A DNA stretch of 64,000 nt from a virus (taxonomy: Duplodnaviria > Heunggongvirae > Uroviricota > Caudoviricetes). Below are positions 2,461-51,513 of the stretch, in pieces (positions within the stretch are counted from its first letter, which is position 1; the number at the start of each line of letters is the position of its first letter). The notes below the pieces were generated by a model that was given only the letters and a program-made list of their open reading frames with translations, had not been told where the DNA came from and did not search any database. Location of the stretch: IMG/VR virus record IMGVR_UViG_2563366960_000002, one strand, 5' to 3'. Made by a program: the position numbers and the translations under genes.

Positions 2461-2707
2461 ACTCCGGCAGCTCCGCCGACTTTCGACAATGAAGTTATCG
2501 CTGGCGGCGATAGTTTTCGACTCGATTTTCATGGCGGTATATGTGCTCAATGAGACGTGGCCACTGGAACCGCTATTATATGCCGGGCTTCGGCTGTGCC
2601 TGACATTTTTGAGCATGGCTGCGAGATTGATGCAGCAGAAAGAAACCGCTTCAGATTGTCCACGCCGCGCGGTGCGCAAATATATGGCACGCAGGCGAAG
2701 GCGATAA
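2453..2707 (+). CDS. Small two-TM membrane protein translationally coupled to lyz
   Basis: ATG overlaps the lyz stop (ATGAATAA); two hydrophobic segments and an Arg-rich C-terminus; lysis-accessory role is inferred from position only. Confidence 0.4.
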   Translation: MNKLRQLRRLSTMKLSLAAIVFDSIFMAVYVLNETWPLEPLLYAGLRLCLTFLSMAARLMQQKETASDCPRRAVRKYMARRRRR

Positions 2708-2718
2708 TAGTTAACGAG

Positions 2719-2746
2719 AACCCCGGCAGCTGCCGGGGTTATTTTT
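2719..2746. terminator. Bidirectional intrinsic terminator
   Basis: Perfect palindrome CCCCGGCAG/CTGCCGGGG followed by TTATTTTT; sits between the convergent lyz unit and pro. Confidence 0.6.
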
Positions 2747-2751
2747 GGTGG

Positions 2752-5482
<2,731 letters not shown>

Positions 5483-24592: not shown

Positions 24593-24982
24593 TTAAATGA
24601 CCGGACAATCATCAAATTCCCCACTTCGGGCATCATTGATGACATGAGTGATCACACCAAAAACAGCATTACTTCCCGTGCATCCATCGTCATCTACTGG
24701 TAACGCCTCTTTCTTCCCGGTGCTTAAATCCTCCAGGTGCTGGCGCGGATACTTTCGGTATCTCTTTATGCGATATTCACCCTCCATAGCGCACACAAGC
24801 AGCGAACCATCAACTGGAGTAAGCGAAGAATCAACCACCAGCAAAGCACCCTGCAATATTCCCTCACGGTGATGGCTATCAGCTGCCCGCATGAAGTAGG
24901 TTGCTGATGGATGCCTGATTAGTTGCTGATCAAGAGAAATTCGGCTTTCAACATAATCCGCCGCAGGAGAAGGGAAGCCCAT
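24593..24982 (-). CDS. humD: HumD, UmuD' homolog
   Basis: 129 aa; S24/UmuD-like sequence lacking the N-terminal cleaved segment; LexA box 22 bp upstream. Confidence 0.9.
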   Translation of the reverse strand: MGFPSPAADYVESRISLDQQLIRHPSATYFMRAADSHHREGILQGALLVVDSSLTPVDGSLLVCAMEGEYRIKRYRKYPRQHLEDLSTGKKEALPVDDDGCTGSNAVFGVITHVINDARSGEFDDCPVI

Positions 24983-25019: not shown

Positions 25020-25155
25020 TATACATTAAAGAGACACCTTTGGTGCAAACGCGTTATGGATCTTAACCCCTCTGATGACTTTGTGCGCTTTGCTACTATT
25101 CATCACCGCTGGATCAGCGTAACCTCGTTACTAATCAATTAATAAGGAATTAGCC

Positions 25156-25740
25156 ATGCCTGCCCGCATTCCTCTCGATCCTGCATTGCCCAAAAATTTT
25201 GACTGCACTCCTAACGAGAAACGCTCCAAAGCCCAGCTGGACGCCTGGTGGGACCATCCCTATGGAGTTACAGAACCTGACGGGAAAATTCTTGTTTATT
25301 GTCTGAATGGTGGCGCGTGGGACCGTCCATCCGTGCTTGGTTTTGTAGATAACTATGATGAAGCCTGTGAACTTGCCGAAAGACAGCAAGCTAGATGGGT
25401 CAAAACACGGTCTAAACCGTCATTCATGTTTTCAAAAGAACCGCCATTTATACTGGCGAGGATGCCGCAGCGACCGGATCATCAACAAGAAATTGTTGCT
25501 GAATTTTCCTCAAGGGATGAGATGAATCTCTTCTCATTAAAGCAGGAAGAAAGGGATCGCGTCGAAGTGTCTCCAACTCTCGACCACAACCGGATGAACC
25601 TGGCCCAGCTCGCCTGGTACAGCAAAGAATTAGAGATGTCTATTGCCCGGCTTGAAAACGAAAAAGCCGCTATCCAAGTCCAGCACGAAGTAGTTCTGAA
25701 CCGGATTAGAGAAATGCAAAACGATAACAGGGGATTTTGA
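25156..25740 (+). CDS. Hypothetical protein (first gene of a two-gene module divergent from humD)
   Basis: 194 aa; AAGGA Shine-Dalgarno; C-terminal coiled-coil; no domain recognised. Confidence 0.6.
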   Translation: MPARIPLDPALPKNFDCTPNEKRSKAQLDAWWDHPYGVTEPDGKILVYCLNGGAWDRPSVLGFVDNYDEACELAERQQARWVKTRSKPSFMFSKEPPFILARMPQRPDHQQEIVAEFSSRDEMNLFSLKQEERDRVEVSPTLDHNRMNLAQLAWYSKELEMSIARLENEKAAIQVQHEVVLNRIREMQNDNRGF

Positions 25741-26097
25741 ATGGCTAAAATCGAGTACCATCGCGATCGCGGTAATTACCTGGAAATATACGATCATGAA
25801 TCTCTTAACGATATCAACGATGCGTTATATGAATACTGTGAAAAAACGAGCATCACAGATGCACCTGATGCATTTGTCGAGCTGCCGGTATATCTCCGCG
25901 ACATCTATGCAATACGAACACCGCCCGTATCGGTGATTCACATTGGCTATGTCCGCCTGTCCATCGAAGAAGATGAAGATCGTTATATCGTGCGCCACTA
26001 TACATTGGACAGAAAAGAACTTCCTAATGAATGGAACATGAGTAATTTCTACAACGGTGAATATGGCTTAAAATCCGCTAATAATTTACGGTCATAA
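25741..26097 (+). CDS. Hypothetical protein (second gene of the module)
   Basis: 118 aa; ATG directly after the stop of the preceding ORF; no domain recognised. Confidence 0.6.
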   Translation: MAKIEYHRDRGNYLEIYDHESLNDINDALYEYCEKTSITDAPDAFVELPVYLRDIYAIRTPPVSVIHIGYVRLSIEEDEDRYIVRHYTLDRKELPNEWNMSNFYNGEYGLKSANNLRS

Positions 26098-26959
26098 TCT
26101 ATACAGGCATGTATAACAACAATGAGCCTATTAGCTGTCAACAACGTTATTTTCTCAAATAAGAAAAAGCAGAAAACAAATTGTTTAAGGTCACAAATTG
26201 TGGCCTTGATGGAGGAGGGAGGCTTATTGGCTATGGCTAAAAATCAAATTAGACACTTCATGTTGCTGTAGCTCATCAAGATCCGAGGCCACAAAACCTT
26301 TTCCGAAAAACTTCACAAGTAACTCACTAGCCGCATCATTGTCACCTATTACACGAAAGTCATACGGCAACGTCGCAAGCTGACGATGTAATCCTGCTGA
26401 GAAAGTCGAATCTAACAGCGCCCAGAATTCCCACCGCAGGATAATACTCGCCTCTTAATACTGTATATATGTTGTTACGATATGTTTTTCTGTCTCTAAA
26501 AAAAGATGTTAATAGAATGCTAACCATTGAAGGGGATAAAAATATACAATTCCAACAAACGTTATTTTTAACAATTTTTTTCTTTGCGTTGACTTTCCCG
26601 GACACCTTGTCTGACCGAAGGTGCGCGAAAGCCACTTTTTCCTTCCTGAGTTATCCACAAAGTTATGCACTTGCAAGAGGGCCATTTTCTACATATTGTG
26701 GTGGCTAACAGATGAAATGAATGTAGATTAATTGAAGATAAGGAGAAAATTTGAGATGCAATCATGACGTTAATAGATAGGGTCTGCATTACAGACCCCA
26801 CCCGCATCAAGGAATTAGCCGTTCCCTGATGTTTTTCCGAAAACATGTGCCGTAAGCTCACGTTAACGACTTTCATTCACCGAATCCAACTATATAGGGG
26901 TTGGTTTTCTACGTCAACGTGAGCAAGTGCACCTTTACATTTGACAAGGAACCACCTGA

Positions 26960-27097
26960 ATGAACGCTTTTTTTCAGTTCCTGAGTGCATTTTTAGATGC
27001 GCCTATTATTAGCCAGATTCTGGCTATTATCCTCATCATCGTTTTGATTTTGCTTTTAAGGTCAGTAAAAAATGGAATTATGCACTGGCTTACTTAA
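26960..27097 (+). CDS. 45-aa hydrophobic peptide in an AT-rich intergenic island
   Basis: MNAFFQFLSAFLDAPIISQILAIILIIVLILLLRSVKNGIMHWLT: one TM helix plus basic anchor; AAGGA 9 nt upstream; hairpin AATGTTTC-agt-GAAACATT right after the stop. Confidence 0.35.
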   Translation: MNAFFQFLSAFLDAPIISQILAIILIIVLILLLRSVKNGIMHWLT

Positions 27098-27172
27098 TGT
27101 TTCAGTGAAACATTAAAATCTCCTTGATGTGGAAACAATCATTTTCTGTATGTGCTGGTGGGCACCTGTAGT

Positions 27173-27535
27173 TCAGCTTTCGTTGGCATTTAACTTCGTC
27201 TTTGCTTTCTCCACCAGCAACTTCCAGATGCCTATTTCATTAGCAGCCGCCTTGATGGCGGCATAAAAAGCATCTTGCTGATCGTAACGCTGGATCTGTT
27301 TTTTCAGTTTTGCCTCCACCAATTTAATTTCATTACGTGCTTTCTGAAGCCGCATCACCGCCCGGTTACGTCTGTTCTTGTATAGCGTGTTAATCTCTGA
27401 CAATTGCTTTAATTTACCAGCCTGACTGCGGATTATCGCCTCCCTGGCTTCTGCCGTGCGTCTCATCTGATCTCTTAAGAGTTCACCGTTTTCGATAATT
27501 CTTTCAAGGTGTTTGATGTGATCTGCAACTCTCAT
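27173..27535 (-). CDS. Hypothetical coiled-coil protein (last gene of an early operon)
   Basis: 120 aa; start overlaps the upstream gene stop. Confidence 0.55.
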   Translation of the reverse strand: MRVADHIKHLERIIENGELLRDQMRRTAEAREAIIRSQAGKLKQLSEINTLYKNRRNRAVMRLQKARNEIKLVEAKLKKQIQRYDQQDAFYAAIKAAANEIGIWKLLVEKAKTKLNANES

Positions 27536-48627: not shown

Positions 48628-48703
48628 TGGTGGCCCCTACCGGACTTGAACCGGTGACCGTGCGATTATGAGTCGCCAGCTCTAACCACTGAGCTAAAGG
48701 GCC
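48628..48703 (-). tRNA. tRNA-Ile2 (anticodon CAU, ileX-like)
   Basis: 76 nt, GGCCCTTTAGCTCAGTGGTTAGAGC...ACTCATAATCG...GGTTCAAGTCC...GGGGCCACCA; closely resembles E. coli ileX; cloverleaf checked by hand. Confidence 0.85.
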
Positions 48704-48730
48704 GGATTACTGCCAATTTTGCTTACGCTT

Positions 48731-49558
48731 TTATTTCACCGGAACAAACGGAACAGCGGCATTACTGGTCATATACTGCGGTAATGTACCGTTCCATTTG
48801 TTGATCGCTTCCAACTCCATAACACCGGGGTTCTGGCGCAGAGCTTCACCACGTAAACGAATGGCATCAGCTTCGGCCTGGGCTTTTGTGCGAATAGCAT
48901 CAGCCTGTCCGGCAGCTTCCGCGCGCAGCATGTTGGCCTCTGCTTCACGTTGTTTGACCTCTTGCTCGCGTTGCAGGGTTTTTTGGTTTGCCGTAACTTT
49001 GGCGTTAATACTGTCAATAACTGTTGGCGGATATTCTGGCTTACCTACATAAGAGAGGCTCATCACCTGAATGCCGATTGGCGTCATTTCTTCCTGAATG
49101 TCTTTAAGGGCTGCATCAAGCAATTCAGATTTGCCACCGTCGATAAATTTGTCGGTGGTCATTTTGCTGGCTAACCGGTTCAGAGCATCTGCAACCTTCT
49201 GGCGTAGATCGGTATCAGTAATATCATCTACACCTTTGCGATAGGTCTGAAATACCGTTGTGACTTTTGCTGGATCAACCTTGTAGGCTACGCCGATGTG
49301 GTAACCAATGGTTGTTCCGTCGCTCATCTGGAAGCTGAACGGCTCATCGTATGTCTTCATTTGCTTAAAGGTCGGGAAGATATAAACTTCAGTATTCAAG
49401 CCTGTCCAGTAGCGACCAACACCAACTACTTCACCGATACCTTTATCATCCCCCAGCTTATTTACTTTGATCCCTACGTTACCTGGCTCTACCCGATCGC
49501 ATCCGGTCAGACATAAAGAACCCAAAATAATCGCTGCACTAATCAACGTTTTTTTCAT
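48731..49558 (-). CDS. plp: SPFH/band-7 domain lipoprotein (Plp-like)
   Basis: 275 aa; lipobox LTGC after signal peptide; HflK/prohibitin-like core and Ala/Glu-rich coiled-coil. Confidence 0.75.
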   Translation of the reverse strand: MKKTLISAAIILGSLCLTGCDRVEPGNVGIKVNKLGDDKGIGEVVGVGRYWTGLNTEVYIFPTFKQMKTYDEPFSFQMSDGTTIGYHIGVAYKVDPAKVTTVFQTYRKGVDDITDTDLRQKVADALNRLASKMTTDKFIDGGKSELLDAALKDIQEEMTPIGIQVMSLSYVGKPEYPPTVIDSINAKVTANQKTLQREQEVKQREAEANMLRAEAAGQADAIRTKAQAEADAIRLRGEALRQNPGVMELEAINKWNGTLPQYMTSNAAVPFVPVK

Positions 49559-49775
49559 TAATTAATTTCCTGGTTTTTTCACGAAAAAAGACTACTGCGA
49601 AAGCCGGGTAAATGAGCGCGAGAAGGACTCCCAACAATACAAGTATTGTGCTGTTAGATGAGATCATATTTGGCAAAAGCCAAACATACAGAACCAGTGA
49701 CACAATCAAACAGAGGACGGCATAAATATATAACCGCACCCATAGCGTTCGACATTTGTTCGGATTGTTCTGCAT
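49539..49775 (-). CDS. upl: Small membrane protein upstream of plp (Upl-like)
   Basis: 78 aa, two TM segments; overlaps the plp start. Confidence 0.55.
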   Translation of the reverse strand: MQNNPNKCRTLWVRLYIYAVLCLIVSLVLYVWLLPNMISSNSTILVLLGVLLALIYPAFAVVFFREKTRKLINEKNVD

Positions 49776-50038
49776 CCTCTCACTCCATTATTTAACGAAT
49801 AAAAAAGCTGCGGTGCCGGGTACCTCCCGGTGTCCTTTGGCTGGTTATCCACCGTGGACGGGGAAACAAGGAGAAATGAATGGACTGATATAACCATTTC
49901 CCCGCGTGCGCTTAGCCGCATTCACCGCAATGGTAAGAGCACTTGGCTGGCTGGGCGGCGATGACGCCTGTATGCATTTGGTGATCCGGTTCTGCTTCCG
50001 GCATTCGCTTAATTAGCCAAATACTCTTAACGTTGCGC

Positions 50039-50125
50039 TGGCGGAGAGTAATGGAATCGAACCATCATCGCTTGCGCTATGGGACGGTTTTCAAGACCGC
50101 TTGAGCACCATGCTCCCTACTCTCC
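50039..50125 (-). tRNA. tRNA-like element with UGA anticodon loop (Ser-like, class II; possibly degenerate)
   Basis: 87 nt; acceptor GGAGAGT/ACTCTCC-G-CCA, anticodon arm GCGGT-CTTGAAA-ACCGT, T-loop TTCGATT; D-arm atypical. Confidence 0.35.
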
Positions 50126-50260
50126 CGTTATTGTGGCGACCGGTGCTGATCTCCGGCTTGCGGTTATTTCAGACTCTCACGGGCGTTTAATTGCCCCGCC
50201 GAACAGCTCTTTTCCGCAATAGCTGCAATGTCTTTCGCGCATCAGCCTGCGCATTCACCA

Positions 50261-50349
50261 CAACGTTGAGAACACTGGTTGTCACGCGCAACGCAACATT
50301 TATTCGTAGATTGGGATATGACCCCGTTACGCCAGTGTTCTCAACGTTG
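50261..50349. repeat. Perfect 18-bp inverted repeat with 53-nt spacer inside the tRNA cluster
   Basis: CAACGTTGAGAACACTGG ... CCAGTGTTCTCAACGTTG. Confidence 0.6.
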
Positions 50350-50578
50350 TAGTGCCGGTTACGGTTCCGGCCAGGCCTCTTCCTCAACGGGGTGTTCTCC
50401 ATACGGACTACCGTTTATTGGTCGTTCCTGCGGTTTATGTTGTGAAGCCAGATGCTTATCTTCTGGTTGCTTCAAAGAGCTGCACTTCATCACAACGGTA
50501 AGAGCATTTATGGCTCGCATCGCGGGAAAAAGCCCACGGTAGAGAGTCGAACTCTACAAATGCTCTTACCTGTTGTGT

Positions 50579-50654
50579 TGGTGCCGGTTAACGGGATCGA
50601 ACCGCTGACCATTCGCTTACAAAGCGACTGCTCTACCAACTGAGCTAAACCGGC
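50579..50654 (-). tRNA. tRNA-Thr (anticodon UGU)
   Basis: 76 nt, GCCGGTTTAGCTCAGTTGGTAGAGC...CTTTGTAAG...GGTTCGATCC...CCGGCACCA. Confidence 0.85.
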
Positions 50655-50658
50655 AATT

Positions 50659-50745
50659 TGGTGGGGAGTGATGGAGTCGAACCACCCGAGTCGCAATGAC
50701 AGTAGATTTACAGTCTACCCCGCTACCCCTACGGACTAACTCCCC
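50659..50745 (-). tRNA. tRNA-Tyr-like (anticodon GUA, long variable arm)
   Basis: 87 nt; acceptor GGGGAGT/ACTCCCC-A-CCA, anticodon arm GTAGA-CTGTAAA-TCTAC, T-loop TTCGACT; D-arm atypical. Confidence 0.6.
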
Positions 50746-50750
50746 TAAAT

Positions 50751-50827
50751 TGGCGATGGTGGGTGGATTCGAACCACCGACCGACAGCTTAGAAGGCTGC
50801 TGCTCTATCCTACTGAGCTACACCATC
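50751..50827 (-). tRNA. tRNA-Arg (anticodon UCU, argU-like)
   Basis: 77 nt, GATGGTGTAGCTCAGTAGGATAGAGC...CCTTCTAAG...GGTTCGAATCC...CACCATCGCCA. Confidence 0.8.
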
Positions 50828-51486: not shown

Positions 51487-51513
51487 TTACACTAATAAAT
51501 TTATTAGAGCAAT
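51487..51513 (-). promoter_or_regulatory. C1 operator (perfect consensus, palindromic extension) at the head of the tRNA/plp/ban unit
   Basis: Reverse complement ATTGCTCTAATAAATTT (17/17) overlapping an opposite-orientation ATTACACTAATAAATTT; overlaps the dmt stop. Confidence 0.7.

Follow-up and report, generated by a model that had tools for sequence, protein, structure and literature searches.

The described systems closest to the locus analyzed here include type I toxin-antitoxin pairs of E. coli. In Ldr/Rdl, encoded in the long direct repeats, the toxin LdrD comprises 35 amino acids and is paired with the antisense RNA Rdl-D, a short cis-encoded RNA which is transcribed from within the long 5' leader of the toxin mRNA and not across its ribosome-binding site. 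TisB/IstR-1 and DinQ/AgrB are linked to the SOS response, and their divergently encoded antitoxins pair with the target over about 20–30 nt. In the case of tisB, binding of the antisense RNA blocks a ribosome standby site and induces cleavage by RNase III.

To relate these systems to a gap in the genomes of P1-like phage-plasmids, we analyzed the window, i.e., the whole stretch of 64,000 nucleotides under study, which is a phage-plasmid of the P1/P7 type. P1 is a classic phage, among the best studied, and serves as a standard tool of genetics; phage-plasmids of its kind disseminate resistance genes. In the literature on P1 we found neither a described type I toxin-antitoxin system nor transcript maps of this gap. 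We estimate a probability of roughly one half that the cassette is an undescribed type I toxin-antitoxin-like module, in which an antisense RNA would act on the leader of a peptide mRNA. The following features are considered:

26441–26557, no strand assigned: AT-rich relic of a control region upstream of humD, including a LexA box that has decayed, from the alignment with the locus L010
26558–27165, plus strand: whole cassette, the conserved unit in the alignment of P1/P7-type with D6-like sequences
26558–26699, plus strand: nrdA-derived promoter, about 95% identical to the E. coli sequence upstream of nrdA
26740–26767, plus strand: Shine-Dalgarno-like AAGGAG (26740–26745), ATG at 26756 and mini-ORF, with 26737–26758 being 100% identical between the clades
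26775–26803, minus strand: stem-loop SL3, whose core is the hairpin 26780–26798, a GC-rich stem followed by UAUCUAUU
about 26881 to 26772, minus strand: putative antisense RNA encoded in cis, about 110 nt in length, with complementarity to the peptide mRNA leader
26856–26924, plus strand: leader hairpin with 13-nt arms, 12 of 13 positions paired (z −2.4), helix kept
26889–26917, minus strand: sigma-70 antisense promoter, −35 TTGACG (26917–26912), 17-bp spacer, −10 TATAGT (26894–26889)
26946–27097, plus strand: Shine-Dalgarno sequence AAGGA (26946–26950) and 45-codon ORF (26960–27097) for a single-pass hydrophobic peptide
27094–27116, plus strand: AT-rich 3' hairpin of 11 bp, overlapping the stop codon
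27120–27126, plus strand: anti-Shine-Dalgarno-like CUCCUUG, from the consensus fold

Distribution and surroundings of the cassette

The region is carried by two deep clades, the P1/P7-type phage-plasmids and the D6-like plasmids, which can be aligned here only within about 26560–27165. Since the right-hand neighbour differs between the clades, being pmgV in one and a type I restriction-modification operon in the other, the cassette is a discrete unit. About 4% of the complete E. coli genomes contain it. A previous sequence-only reading had described an AT-rich island, and the GC content of 0.335–0.43 over 26400–27200, compared to about 0.45–0.55 in the flanks, bears this out. Scanning of GTDB genomes with a peptide pattern and a 21-mer yielded no more divergent copies, a metagenome scan returned the same two clades and no further ones, and three scans of viral contigs with different conserved blocks added only one SNP variant and two chance 19-mers. 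Distant blastn searches of phages and E. coli genomes revealed no chromosomal paralogue.

The cassette adjoins the SOS and replication genes humD, lxr and hot, and phd/doc is located about 2.5 kb away on the same phage-plasmid. In other D6-like plasmids, the same slot holds a different cassette, composed of an AgrB-like RNA and a small hydrophobic ORF of 27 residues. L010 has such a different cassette, with a sub-threshold AgrB match of 27.6 bits; its similarity to the window cassette was not above that of shuffled controls, and by blastn it did not match the chromosomal dinQ locus. Positions 26441–26675 of the window align with L010 2321–2571, where the counterpart of the relic starts directly after the humD start codon and contains an intact LexA box, TACTGTATATACATACAGTA. 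The corresponding box in the window, TACTGTATATATGTTGTTAC at about 26458–26477, is decayed, and the relic (26441–26557) probably has no part in the function of the cassette. As none of the 15 C1 operator-like sites in the window is located within the cassette region, expression in a lysogen would be possible. Lytic growth does not require the region (PMC10695390), which is evidence neither for nor against the toxin-antitoxin model.

Both the relic with its broken LexA box and the dispensability would also fit a non-functional spacer, in which a captured nrdA promoter relic and a decayed humD control region are accompanied by hairpins and an ORF that arose by chance. The retention of the cassette in two clades with different neighbours argues against this explanation, and further evidence is given below.

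Two facing candidate promoters and a predicted antisense RNA

At the left end of the cassette, a segment of 139 bp (26558–26696) shares about 95% identity with the E. coli nrdA promoter. The DnaA-box-like sequence TTATCCACA that had been noticed near 26651 is present at 26651–26659 within this segment, and a second DnaA box, TTATGCACT, is found at 26663–26671. The boxes are located directly upstream of, or overlap, the −35 element TTGCAA (26671–26676), which a 17-bp spacer separates from the −10 element TATTGT (26694–26699); this is the layout of a DnaA-regulated promoter of the nrdA type. Judged by number alone, one DnaA-box match does not exceed chance (2 matches in the window vs. 2.3 expected), as the spacer explanation would have it. 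The homology covers the AT-rich region upstream, the two DnaA boxes, the −35 element and the spacer, and stops within the −10 element after its first bases; the cassette has neither the transcribed leader nor the NrdR boxes nor nrdA. Likewise, inspection by eye against the NrdR consensus revealed no good NrdR palindrome at the corresponding position downstream of the −10 element. The promoter is found in all clades and is oriented toward the 45-codon ORF. The P1 record M95666 annotates an 'nrdA-like promoter' and a 'dnaA box', and no gene for this promoter is annotated in P1. The host-derived promoter, DnaA box included, probably drives the peptide mRNA, with a predicted start site at about 26707. 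In contrast to the E. coli nrdAB promoter, a phage-specific leader RNA and the 45-codon ORF take the place of nrdA.

The top promoter match in the region (10/12) is the antisense promoter. Its hexamers and their spacing are identical in every sequence, while the spacer bases vary, and it was previously predicted as 'PupfN' in the P1 record. Another minus-strand promoter near 27105–27077, in the area of 'P1upfM/P2upfM' of P1, was rejected because its −10 element is not conserved in the D6-like plasmids.

The RNA predicted to start at the antisense promoter, with both ends placed from the sequence, folds into three stem-loops (SL1 26869–26837, SL2 26831–26805, SL3 26803–26775) with a minimum free energy of −43.2 kcal/mol (z −5.14), and 0 of 200 shuffled sequences folded as well. 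The D6-like RNA has the same three-stem-loop architecture (z −4.41), whereas the same interval as plus-strand RNA folds far less stably, at −27.9 kcal/mol (z −2.74). Substitutions are found in loops and linkers or preserve pairing. The consensus fold shows one compensatory pair and several changes from G-U to A-U, which make sense only on the minus strand; this covariation comprises very few events, from only two deep clades. Searches of Rfam gave no match at the gathering score in the whole window and nothing meaningful for 26400–27300 at E values up to 10.

In SL3 of the D6-like RNA, one U-A pair is replaced by C-G, and three pairs change from G-U to A-U or from U-G to U-A. The core of SL3 is the 7-bp hairpin that the sequence-only reading had placed upstream of the ORF, and it is indeed a perfect stem (26780–26786/26792–26798). 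Inverted repeats of 7 bp are common in 800 bp of AT-rich DNA, and single hairpins not above chance would suit a mere spacer; it is the minus-strand RNA containing the hairpin that has the z-score of −5.14. The covariation search proposed earlier returned one compensatory pair in this very hairpin, a thin result from two clades. The most plausible interpretation of the hairpin is a terminator-like stem at the 3' end of the antisense RNA. SL3 is a tentative candidate for its intrinsic terminator; a terminator scan did not call it, and its U-tract is poor. In the loop of SL2, 12 nt match the ribosome-binding site (25144–25158) of the neighbouring lxr-like gene (lxr/upf94.2), on which, in the more far-reaching version given below, the antisense RNA might act in trans as well.

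The suggestion of a cis-antisense RNA is thus strengthened by an invariant convergent promoter and a strand-specific fold. However, the predicted RNA overlaps the 5' leader and covers neither the ORF nor its ribosome-binding site. The earlier statement that long ORFs are lacking requires qualification, since ORFs of 79–102 residues are present on both strands, some of them annotated in P7 and P1, but none is conserved. The annotated minus-strand ORFs in P1 and P7 are upfM, upfN and upf91.x. We rejected upfM and upfN/upf91.4 as real genes, as a frameshift and stops disrupt them in the D6-like clade, and upfN is not the same even in P1 and P7. Since the minus-strand ORFs are interrupted in the D6-like clade, a minus-strand RNA would be non-coding. 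The reference annotation of the cassette in P1 consists of only three spurious minus-strand ORFs, and upfM/upfN/upfO of P1 and upf91.3–91.7 of P7 should be replaced by one small plus-strand ORF and one non-coding RNA.

The minus-strand promoter may instead be the lysogenic promoter of hot, which encodes a homologue of DNA polymerase III theta. The hairpins would then belong to a leader or attenuator of hot, the nrdA-like promoter would exert transcriptional interference or bind DnaA, and the ORF would be fortuitous. Indeed, P1 and the D6-like plasmids have hot on the minus strand 400–500 nt further downstream, and no convincing terminator separates it from the promoter. However, the lineage of the window, P7 and SJ46 has no hot downstream and keeps the whole cassette, which is a weak argument as the lineage is young, and conservation extends about 65 nt to the right of the ORF, which a hot leader would not need. 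We consider an origin of these features in the control of hot to be distinctly unlikely, also in view of the properties of the ORF described below.

Leader and reading frame of the predicted mRNA

Conservation is higher in the leader (about 250 nt) than in the ORF, with divergences of 9% (17/187) and 24%, respectively (Fisher p = 3e-4). In an 87-bp leader block that covers the antisense promoter together with the 5' half of the predicted antisense RNA, divergence is only 2%, while synonymous divergence amounts to 0.40. The high identity of the leader could in part be due to recombination between the clades. Low divergence of the leader and of the 87-bp block in comparison to about 40% at synonymous sites, together with the minus-strand folds in both clades (z −5.1 and −4.4), speaks against a non-functional spacer, which we regard as highly improbable.

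Within the leader, the mini-ORF starting at 26756 reads MQS* in the window and is reduced to a start-stop (ATG-TAA) in the D6-like clade; AAGGAG and the mini-ORF are a possible ribosome loading or standby site. A 21-codon upstream ORF (26764–26829) is open in all clades and ends 130 nt before the 45-codon ORF. It was rejected as a coding leader peptide: since every substitution in it is non-synonymous and two of the substitutions constitute the compensatory hairpin pair, it is constrained as RNA and not as protein. The leader hairpin at 26856–26924 encloses the antisense promoter, its left arm lies inside the antisense-target region, and it shows one C-G to U-G change, which is tolerated only in the plus-strand RNA.

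The hairpin following the stop codon, originally described with an 8-bp stem, was found to have 11 perfect pairs (27094–27104/27106–27116). Its D6-like counterpart differs by one compensatory change from U-A to C-G, one change from G-C to G-U and one broken pair, and by itself the region does not fold significantly better than chance (z −0.8 for the plus and −1.95 for the minus strand). A function as canonical intrinsic terminator was rejected, as a U-run is missing on either strand; the hairpin possibly stabilises the 3' end or marks a site of processing. CCUUG (27122–27126) is predicted by the consensus fold to pair with UAAGG (26739–26743), which would close the whole mRNA. Since these pairs are invariant, they provide no covariation evidence.

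The 45-residue product of the ORF reported by the sequence-only reading is MNAFFQFLSAFLDAPIISQILAIILIIVLILLLRSVKNGIMHWLT. With a GRAVY of 1.56 and a best 19-residue segment at residues 15–33 (mean Kyte-Doolittle 3.10), followed by R34 and K37, it looks like a membrane peptide with one transmembrane segment and subsequent basic residues. It fits the generic size of type I toxins (under about 60 residues) and their hydrophobic nature with a transmembrane segment. Hydrophobicity would be expected of any open frame here, as the plus strand is T-rich.

The ORF is intact, with unchanged start and stop, in all 18 distinct versions from viral contigs, phages and plasmids, and all 199 plasmid matches obtained by tblastn span at least 91% of the peptide. 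In SJ46 and JL22 it is annotated as a hypothetical protein. P1/P7-type and D6-like versions are about 76% identical and have 45 codons in both cases. The Shine-Dalgarno sequence is retained as AAGGA in the window and GAGGA in the D6-like clade, the remaining five frames of the interval contain stops, so that only the ORF frame is open in both clades, and the changes in codons 5–12 (FQFLSAFL) are all synonymous. The dN/dS ratio is 0.41, and the 33 substitutions are distributed 12/8/13 over the codon positions. When 33 substitutions were placed at random, the ORF stayed intact in 11% of the cases and was intact and equally conservative in 2%, which suggests a modest coding signal. Such a signal in T-rich sequence, which yields hydrophobic frames, is what a fortuitous ORF next to a hot leader would show, but the single frame open in both clades, the retained Shine-Dalgarno sequence and the exclusively synonymous changes in the conserved N-terminal half argue against it.

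Comparison of the peptide with Pfam, PHROGs, NCBIfam and PADLOC gave only noise-level transmembrane matches and one PHROG of unknown function (E = 0.058). A word-indexed search and an exhaustive HMMER search of 1.84 billion representatives recovered only four proteins (P0001–P0004), all of them C-terminally altered alleles from the same two clades. The proposed resemblance to small membrane toxins is thus in line with an ORF kept at 45 codons in both clades, but does not extend to a match with a known toxin family.

The ORF may also be a real gene for a small membrane protein under antisense and nrdA-type control that is not a toxin. It would have a regulatory or accessory role, e.g., in modulation of membrane proteins, exclusion or lysis timing, and the antisense RNA would merely tune its level. 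The anatomy is the same as in the toxin-antitoxin-like reading, and many enterobacterial membrane proteins of 30–50 residues are not toxic. Moreover, natural alleles with altered C-termini exist (P0001–P0004), and the ORF is intact in essentially all plasmids, hence it is not being purged. On the other hand, the classic type I layout is recognizable in the combination of a convergent promoter stronger than that of the mRNA, an extended, structured leader and a peptide that is very hydrophobic and ends in a basic tail, and a second toxin-antitoxin-like cassette occupies the same slot in relatives, although neither point is decisive. We regard a non-toxic membrane protein as rather unlikely.

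Proposed module and comparison with known systems

According to the type I toxin-antitoxin-like reading, rightward transcription would start at about 26707 from a promoter whose DnaA boxes, −35 element and most of the −10 element were copied from host nrdA. The resulting mRNA would comprise a structured leader of about 250 nt, the ORF for a single-pass membrane peptide and the 3' hairpin. A stronger convergent promoter within the leader would give rise to the three-stem-loop antisense RNA of about 110 nt, which would pair perfectly with the leader between AAGGAG-N10-AUG (26740–26758) and the ribosome-binding site of the ORF itself. Pairing may block ribosome standby or sliding, lead to cleavage by RNase III, or both, and would keep the peptide off while the plasmid is present. 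Upon plasmid loss or transcription shut-off, the antisense RNA would decay and the peptide would be made. The intact ORF, the strand-specific fold and the individual sequence elements with their conservation are seen directly in the comparison; we infer both transcripts and their ends, translation and toxicity of the peptide, the relative stabilities of the RNAs and the mode of repression from the sequence.

A more far-reaching version, which we consider distinctly doubtful, is that of a replication-sensing type I module of a new family, with a membrane toxin on a stolen nrdA promoter in a swap-in slot by humD and hot. The toxin mRNA would then be synthesized according to the replication-initiation and replication-stress state of the host and be restrained by a constitutive cis-antisense RNA; in relatives, the slot carries a different, AgrB/DinQ-like cassette. 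If the cassette is a type I toxin-antitoxin system, P1 gains a second such module beside phd/doc, for maintenance or abortive infection. The 'nrdA-like promoter' of M95666 would finally have a gene to drive, and host regulatory DNA would have been captured to time a toxin.

Similar to TisB/IstR-1 and DinQ/AgrB, the predicted antisense RNA pairs with the leader well upstream of the ribosome-binding site of the putative toxin, and the cassette adjoins SOS and replication genes. In contrast to these systems, the antisense RNA is fully cis-encoded and convergent, and the mRNA promoter has no LexA box in front, the sole nearby box being decayed. AgrB gave no match in 26400–27300 of the window at E values up to 10, which does not support membership in DinQ/AgrB. 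The cassette resembles Hok/Sok (parB of plasmid R1) in being plasmid-borne beside another addiction module (phd/doc), in its strong convergent antisense promoter and in an upstream ribosome-binding element apart from that of the putative toxin. The predicted closing helix UAAGG/CCUUG between the 5' and 3' ends is reminiscent of tac-fbi pairing. However, the window contains no mok-like overlapping frame, the closing helix comprises only 5 bp and is invariant, and searches for HOK_GEF (Pfam) and Sok (Rfam) gave no match, so that the cassette cannot be assigned to Hok/Sok.

With regard to Ldr/Rdl, Ldr_toxin was not among the Pfam matches at E values up to 10, and rdlD was not matched in Rfam at the gathering score or at E values up to 10. 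The sole resemblance in sequence is a local BLASTP alignment of the peptide with LdrD, with 7/15 identities and an 'AP(I/V)I..ILA' motif. In its layout, the cassette shares with Ldr/Rdl a short hydrophobic peptide that would span the membrane once and carries a basic tail at its C-terminus, a long leader and a predicted antisense RNA arising from this leader. It differs in that the peptide is 10 residues longer and the antisense RNA has about 110 nt with three stem-loops instead of about 60 nt, and in that the cassette is plasmid- or phage-borne, is located outside long direct repeats and has a captured nrdA promoter.

The locus and its nrdA-like promoter

The window belongs to a P1/P7-type phage-plasmid, whose segment 26100-27540 shares 99.7% identity with phage P7 and 99.6% with SJ46, and 96.6% with P1 from 26621 rightward. 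Since the IS903 insertion carried by phage P7 at about window position 26361 is missing from the window, as it is from SJ46 and others, the window represents a P7-like element lacking this insertion. The phd/doc addiction genes and humD are located immediately to the left of the region. Elsewhere in the window, four tRNA genes at the Rfam gathering score (72, 67, 65, and 42 bits) were found on the minus strand at 48631-50827, three of them adjoining (50582-50827) and the fourth about 2 kb off.

The gap under study is AT-rich, as the sequence-only reading had proposed (measured GC 0.335-0.43). In the P1 reference, its sole gene calls are three small minus-strand ORFs (upfM, upfN, and upfO), accompanied by predicted promoters and the label '94 pct identical to E. 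coli DNA containing two predicted DnaA boxes'. An older P1 record (M95666) gives the same stretch as an 'nrdA-like promoter' with a 'dnaA box', pointing right in window coordinates, and the P7 record lists five overlapping minus-strand ORFs. A plus-strand 45-codon ORF was called only by the automatic annotation of SJ46 and JL22, as a hypothetical protein. In a CRISPRi survey, upfN and upfO were non-essential for lytic growth, upfM being outside its tested set (PMC10695390); as far as an earlier deletion survey is cited there, all three are non-essential.

Features of the gap and its borders
25741-26097, plus strand: upf93.6 homologue, left border
26441-26480: humD upstream relic with a broken LexA box
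26651-26659 and 26663-26671, plus strand: DnaA boxes, read from the sequence
26671-26676, plus strand: nrdA-like -35 hexamer TTGCAA, read from the sequence and followed by a 17-bp spacer
26694-26699, plus strand: nrdA-like -10 hexamer TATTGT, read from the sequence
26803-26775, minus strand: SL3, a GC-rich stem-loop followed by UAUCUAUU
26960-27097, plus strand: 45-codon ORF
27173-27535, minus strand: pmgV homologue, right border

Window 26441-26675 has an aligning counterpart in the D6-like plasmid pRM9131-1 (NZ_CP028430), where the stretch begins at the humD start codon, includes an intact LexA box, and reaches the same nrdA-like promoter. Because the LexA box of the window has decayed by small deletions (TACTGTATATATGTTGTTAC vs TACTGTATATACATACAGTA in pRM9131-1), the left-hand 120 bp of the AT-rich island are a relic. 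The functional humD of the element, under a control region of its own, is located at 24593-24982.

Over the adjoining segment 26558-26696, identity to the E. coli chromosome directly upstream of nrdA is about 95%, and the homology extends only as far as the opening bases of the -10 hexamer. The DnaA-box-like site noticed earlier corresponds to TTATCCACA at 26651-26659; a lone DnaA box, like a lone 7-bp hairpin, is within chance expectation, and the weight of either comes from the context. Judged from its sequence, the nrdA-like promoter is host-derived and fires toward the 45-codon ORF from a predicted start at about 26707. It was found in every lineage examined, with falling identity to E. 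coli, and scores 8 of 12 when counted from the sequence, which is weaker than a convergent minus-strand promoter. Such promoter capture is unusual. A plus-strand 79-residue ORF (26469-26708) matching phrog_28987 merely overlies this conserved promoter.

Conservation of the ORF and its leader

Among 5426 complete E. coli genomes, 216 carry the cassette, nearly always on a plasmid; it also occurs in 318 PLSDB plasmids from Escherichia, Salmonella, and Shigella, 54 viral contigs, and 15 metagenome loci. The copies fall into only two deep clades, one of P1/P7 type and one of D6-like IncFIB phage-plasmids, which are about 74-77% identical overall and set the comparative depth of the analysis. No more distant copies were detected in GTDB representative genomes, and neither an exhaustive HMMER search across 1.84 billion proteins nor a word-indexed protein search brought up more distant protein relatives. 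D6-like copies of the cassette are flanked by hot and a type I restriction-modification operon and have no pmgV neighbour. As the neighbours differ and alignability between clades stops near 27165, the conserved unit is the cassette itself, at about 26558-27165. In one plasmid (H37), IS1 is inserted within the region.

The hydrophobic peptide ORF proposed in the sequence-only reading is indeed present, and the single transmembrane segment with a basic anchor was confirmed (residues 15-33, mean hydropathy 3.10, then R34 and K37). Start, stop, and length are identical in all 18 distinct sequences, and all five other frames across the ORF hold stops. Between clades 19/45 residues differ, mostly conservatively (I/V, L/F, K/R), the FQFLSAFL stretch has two substitutions only, both synonymous, and the Shine-Dalgarno sequence is retained (AAGGA in the window, GAGGA in D6-like elements). 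All 199 plasmid tblastn matches span at least 91% of the peptide. The coding statistics are modest, with a dN/dS of 0.41 and 12/8/13 differences per codon position; random placement of the 33 observed substitutions left the ORF intact in 11% of trials, and both intact and equally conservative in 2%. That the ORF is fortuitous and the minus-strand promoter belongs to hot is, in our judgment, improbable.

Four natural peptide alleles from public protein collections (P0001-P0004; two P1-type, two D6-like) have altered C-termini past the transmembrane segment, their tails parting from the intact peptide after residues 31-37. The intact P1/P7-type peptide is absent from a 15-billion-protein collection, which indicates that gene callers mostly overlook the ORF.

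Among the annotated minus-strand ORFs, upfM has a frameshift and interruptions in D6-like sequences; upfN/upf91.4 is likewise interrupted in them, and its P1 and P7 versions already differ. From this comparison, P1 upfM and upfN and P7 upf91.3 and upf91.4 (window 26568-26990, minus strand) lack conservation as reading frames and are probably spurious; upfO and upf91.6/91.7 lie outside it. A 21-codon upstream ORF (26764-26829) is open throughout. Since all of its substitutions are non-synonymous and two of them fall on both sides of one hairpin pair, it is constrained as RNA.

Divergence between clades along the cassette
26737-26923, leader: 9% (17/187)
26926-26959: about 35%
26960-27097, ORF: 24%
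27098-27172: 36%
ORF synonymous sites: pS 0.40

By alignment, the leader is the most conserved part of the cassette (Fisher p = 3e-4 against the ORF). Conservation so far beyond the synonymous rate is hard to reconcile with a non-functional relic, which we regard as very improbable. Segment 26737-26758, which contains AAGGAG, ten bases, and ATG, is invariant, and 26837-26923 has about 2 differences over its 87 bp. The latter contains the top promoter match of the whole region, TTGACG-17 bp-TATAGT on the minus strand (26917 to 26889; 10 of 12), with invariant hexamers and spacing and three variable spacer positions; P1 annotators predicted it as 'PupfN'. Window position 26905, in this spacer beside a small GGUUGG hairpin, is T in the window and G in all 15 other distinct versions.

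Predicted antisense RNA and proposed mechanism

Transcription from the minus-strand promoter would begin near 26881 and proceed to the left, giving an RNA antisense to the leader. The minus-strand interval 26883 to 26770 (114 nt) is predicted to fold into three stem-loops (SL1-SL3; -43.2 kcal/mol, z = -5.14, equalled by 0/200 shuffles), and the D6-like version into the same three (z = -4.41). Folding the plus strand of this interval gives only -27.9 kcal/mol (z = -2.74); the surplus stability of the minus strand comes from G-U pairs and is hence strand-specific. Substitutions are concentrated in the SL2 loop and the linkers. SL3 contains the perfect 7-bp stem noticed earlier (26780-26798). The consensus fold of the antisense RNA has one compensatory SL3 pair (U-A to C-G), three shifts from G-U to A-U or U-G to U-A, and three pairs broken in one clade. 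This covariation is consistent and strand-specific, albeit thin, covering two clades only. SL3 with its following UAUCUAUU is a plausible, weak candidate for an intrinsic terminator, for which a simple scan returned no call.

The leader 12-mer AAGGAATTAGCC (26809-26820), which would base-pair with the SL2 loop together with the 3' arm, has an exact second copy at 25144-25155, the ribosome-binding site of the lxr-like upf94.2 (ATG at 25156). P1 lxr retains 11/12 bases, the twelfth permitting a G-U pair, and in the D6-like plasmids examined (L007, L008, and L010, the last being pRM9131-1) no lxr was found beside humD and the SL2 loop differs. By base complementarity, this site may be a trans target of the antisense RNA or a chance match, given an expectation of about 0.8 12-mer matches across the window.

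The plus-strand consensus fold keeps the complements of SL2 and SL3. It includes a leader hairpin enclosing the antisense promoter (26856-26924; 12/13 pairs, one C-G to U-G change being tolerated only on this strand), a small helix pairing the ORF Shine-Dalgarno, and one hairpin within the ORF. The hairpin expected directly after the stop exists, with an 11-bp stem spanning the stop codon (27094-27116) instead of the claimed 8 bp, and shows one compensatory pair, one wobble change, and one break. An invariant 5-bp helix, UAAGG (26739-26743)/CCUUG (27122-27126), would close the mRNA. No canonical terminator was found after the ORF.

From this anatomy and known type I systems, we propose that the weaker nrdA-type promoter would supply a stable, folded mRNA and the stronger convergent promoter antisense RNA in excess. 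In the interval that separates the invariant upstream ribosome-loading element from the ribosome-binding site of the ORF itself, a duplex of about 110 bp would form, blocking ribosome standby or sliding, leading to RNase III cleavage, or both. IstR-1 blocks ribosome standby or sliding on tisB. Were antisense synthesis halted by plasmid loss or by host shut-off through another phage, the peptide would be made and damage the membrane; the nrdA promoter would additionally make mRNA supply respond to replication stress and to the state of DnaA. The P1 C1 operator consensus has fifteen matches in the window at ≤3 mismatches (0.26 expected), including a perfect site at 51497-51513 overlapped by a second one. 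None lies in the cassette region, and thus the lysogen may still express the cassette.

Relation to known toxin-antitoxin systems

In pRM9131-1, the slot corresponding to window 26700-27170 holds a different cassette (2640-3110) downstream of the same nrdA-like promoter. It comprises a full-length, sub-threshold Rfam AgrB match (2651-2732, minus strand; 27.6 bits, E = 0.025) with a good terminator and a 27-residue hydrophobic ORF, MVNLLFKIVPPMFAIIKAIIEYVNQRP (2985-3068, plus strand), followed by a strong terminator. An 18-19-nt repeat would allow the AgrB-like RNA to pair with the ORF leader. This unannotated cassette, carried by 115 of the 5426 E. coli genomes, resembles a type I toxin-antitoxin system of the DinQ/AgrB kind. 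As it shares the promoter and no sequence with the window's cassette, the slot may be a swap-in site for such modules, and we count this second cassette as a supporting side observation.

The type I toxin-antitoxin idea is partly supported, by cassette conservation and the strand-specific fold, and we assign it a probability of about 0.5. The only protein resemblance of the peptide is to LdrD (7/15 identities over a 15-residue match). The peptide could instead be a non-toxic small membrane protein under the same regulation, a reading that we consider unlikely.

Our literature search found no description of the cassette. On comparative grounds, it is a credible candidate for a new family within a known class of systems, carried by a very well-studied phage. 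The peptide has no family match in Pfam, NCBIfam, or PADLOC, and Rfam gave no match even at E up to 10; on these searches the cassette falls outside Ldr/Rdl, TisB/IstR-1, and Hok/Sok. The closest layouts are those of Ldr/Rdl, with a cis-antisense RNA inside a long leader, and TisB/IstR-1, with action upstream of the ribosome-binding site, and the plasmid location and possible 5'-3' closure of the mRNA resemble Hok/Sok.
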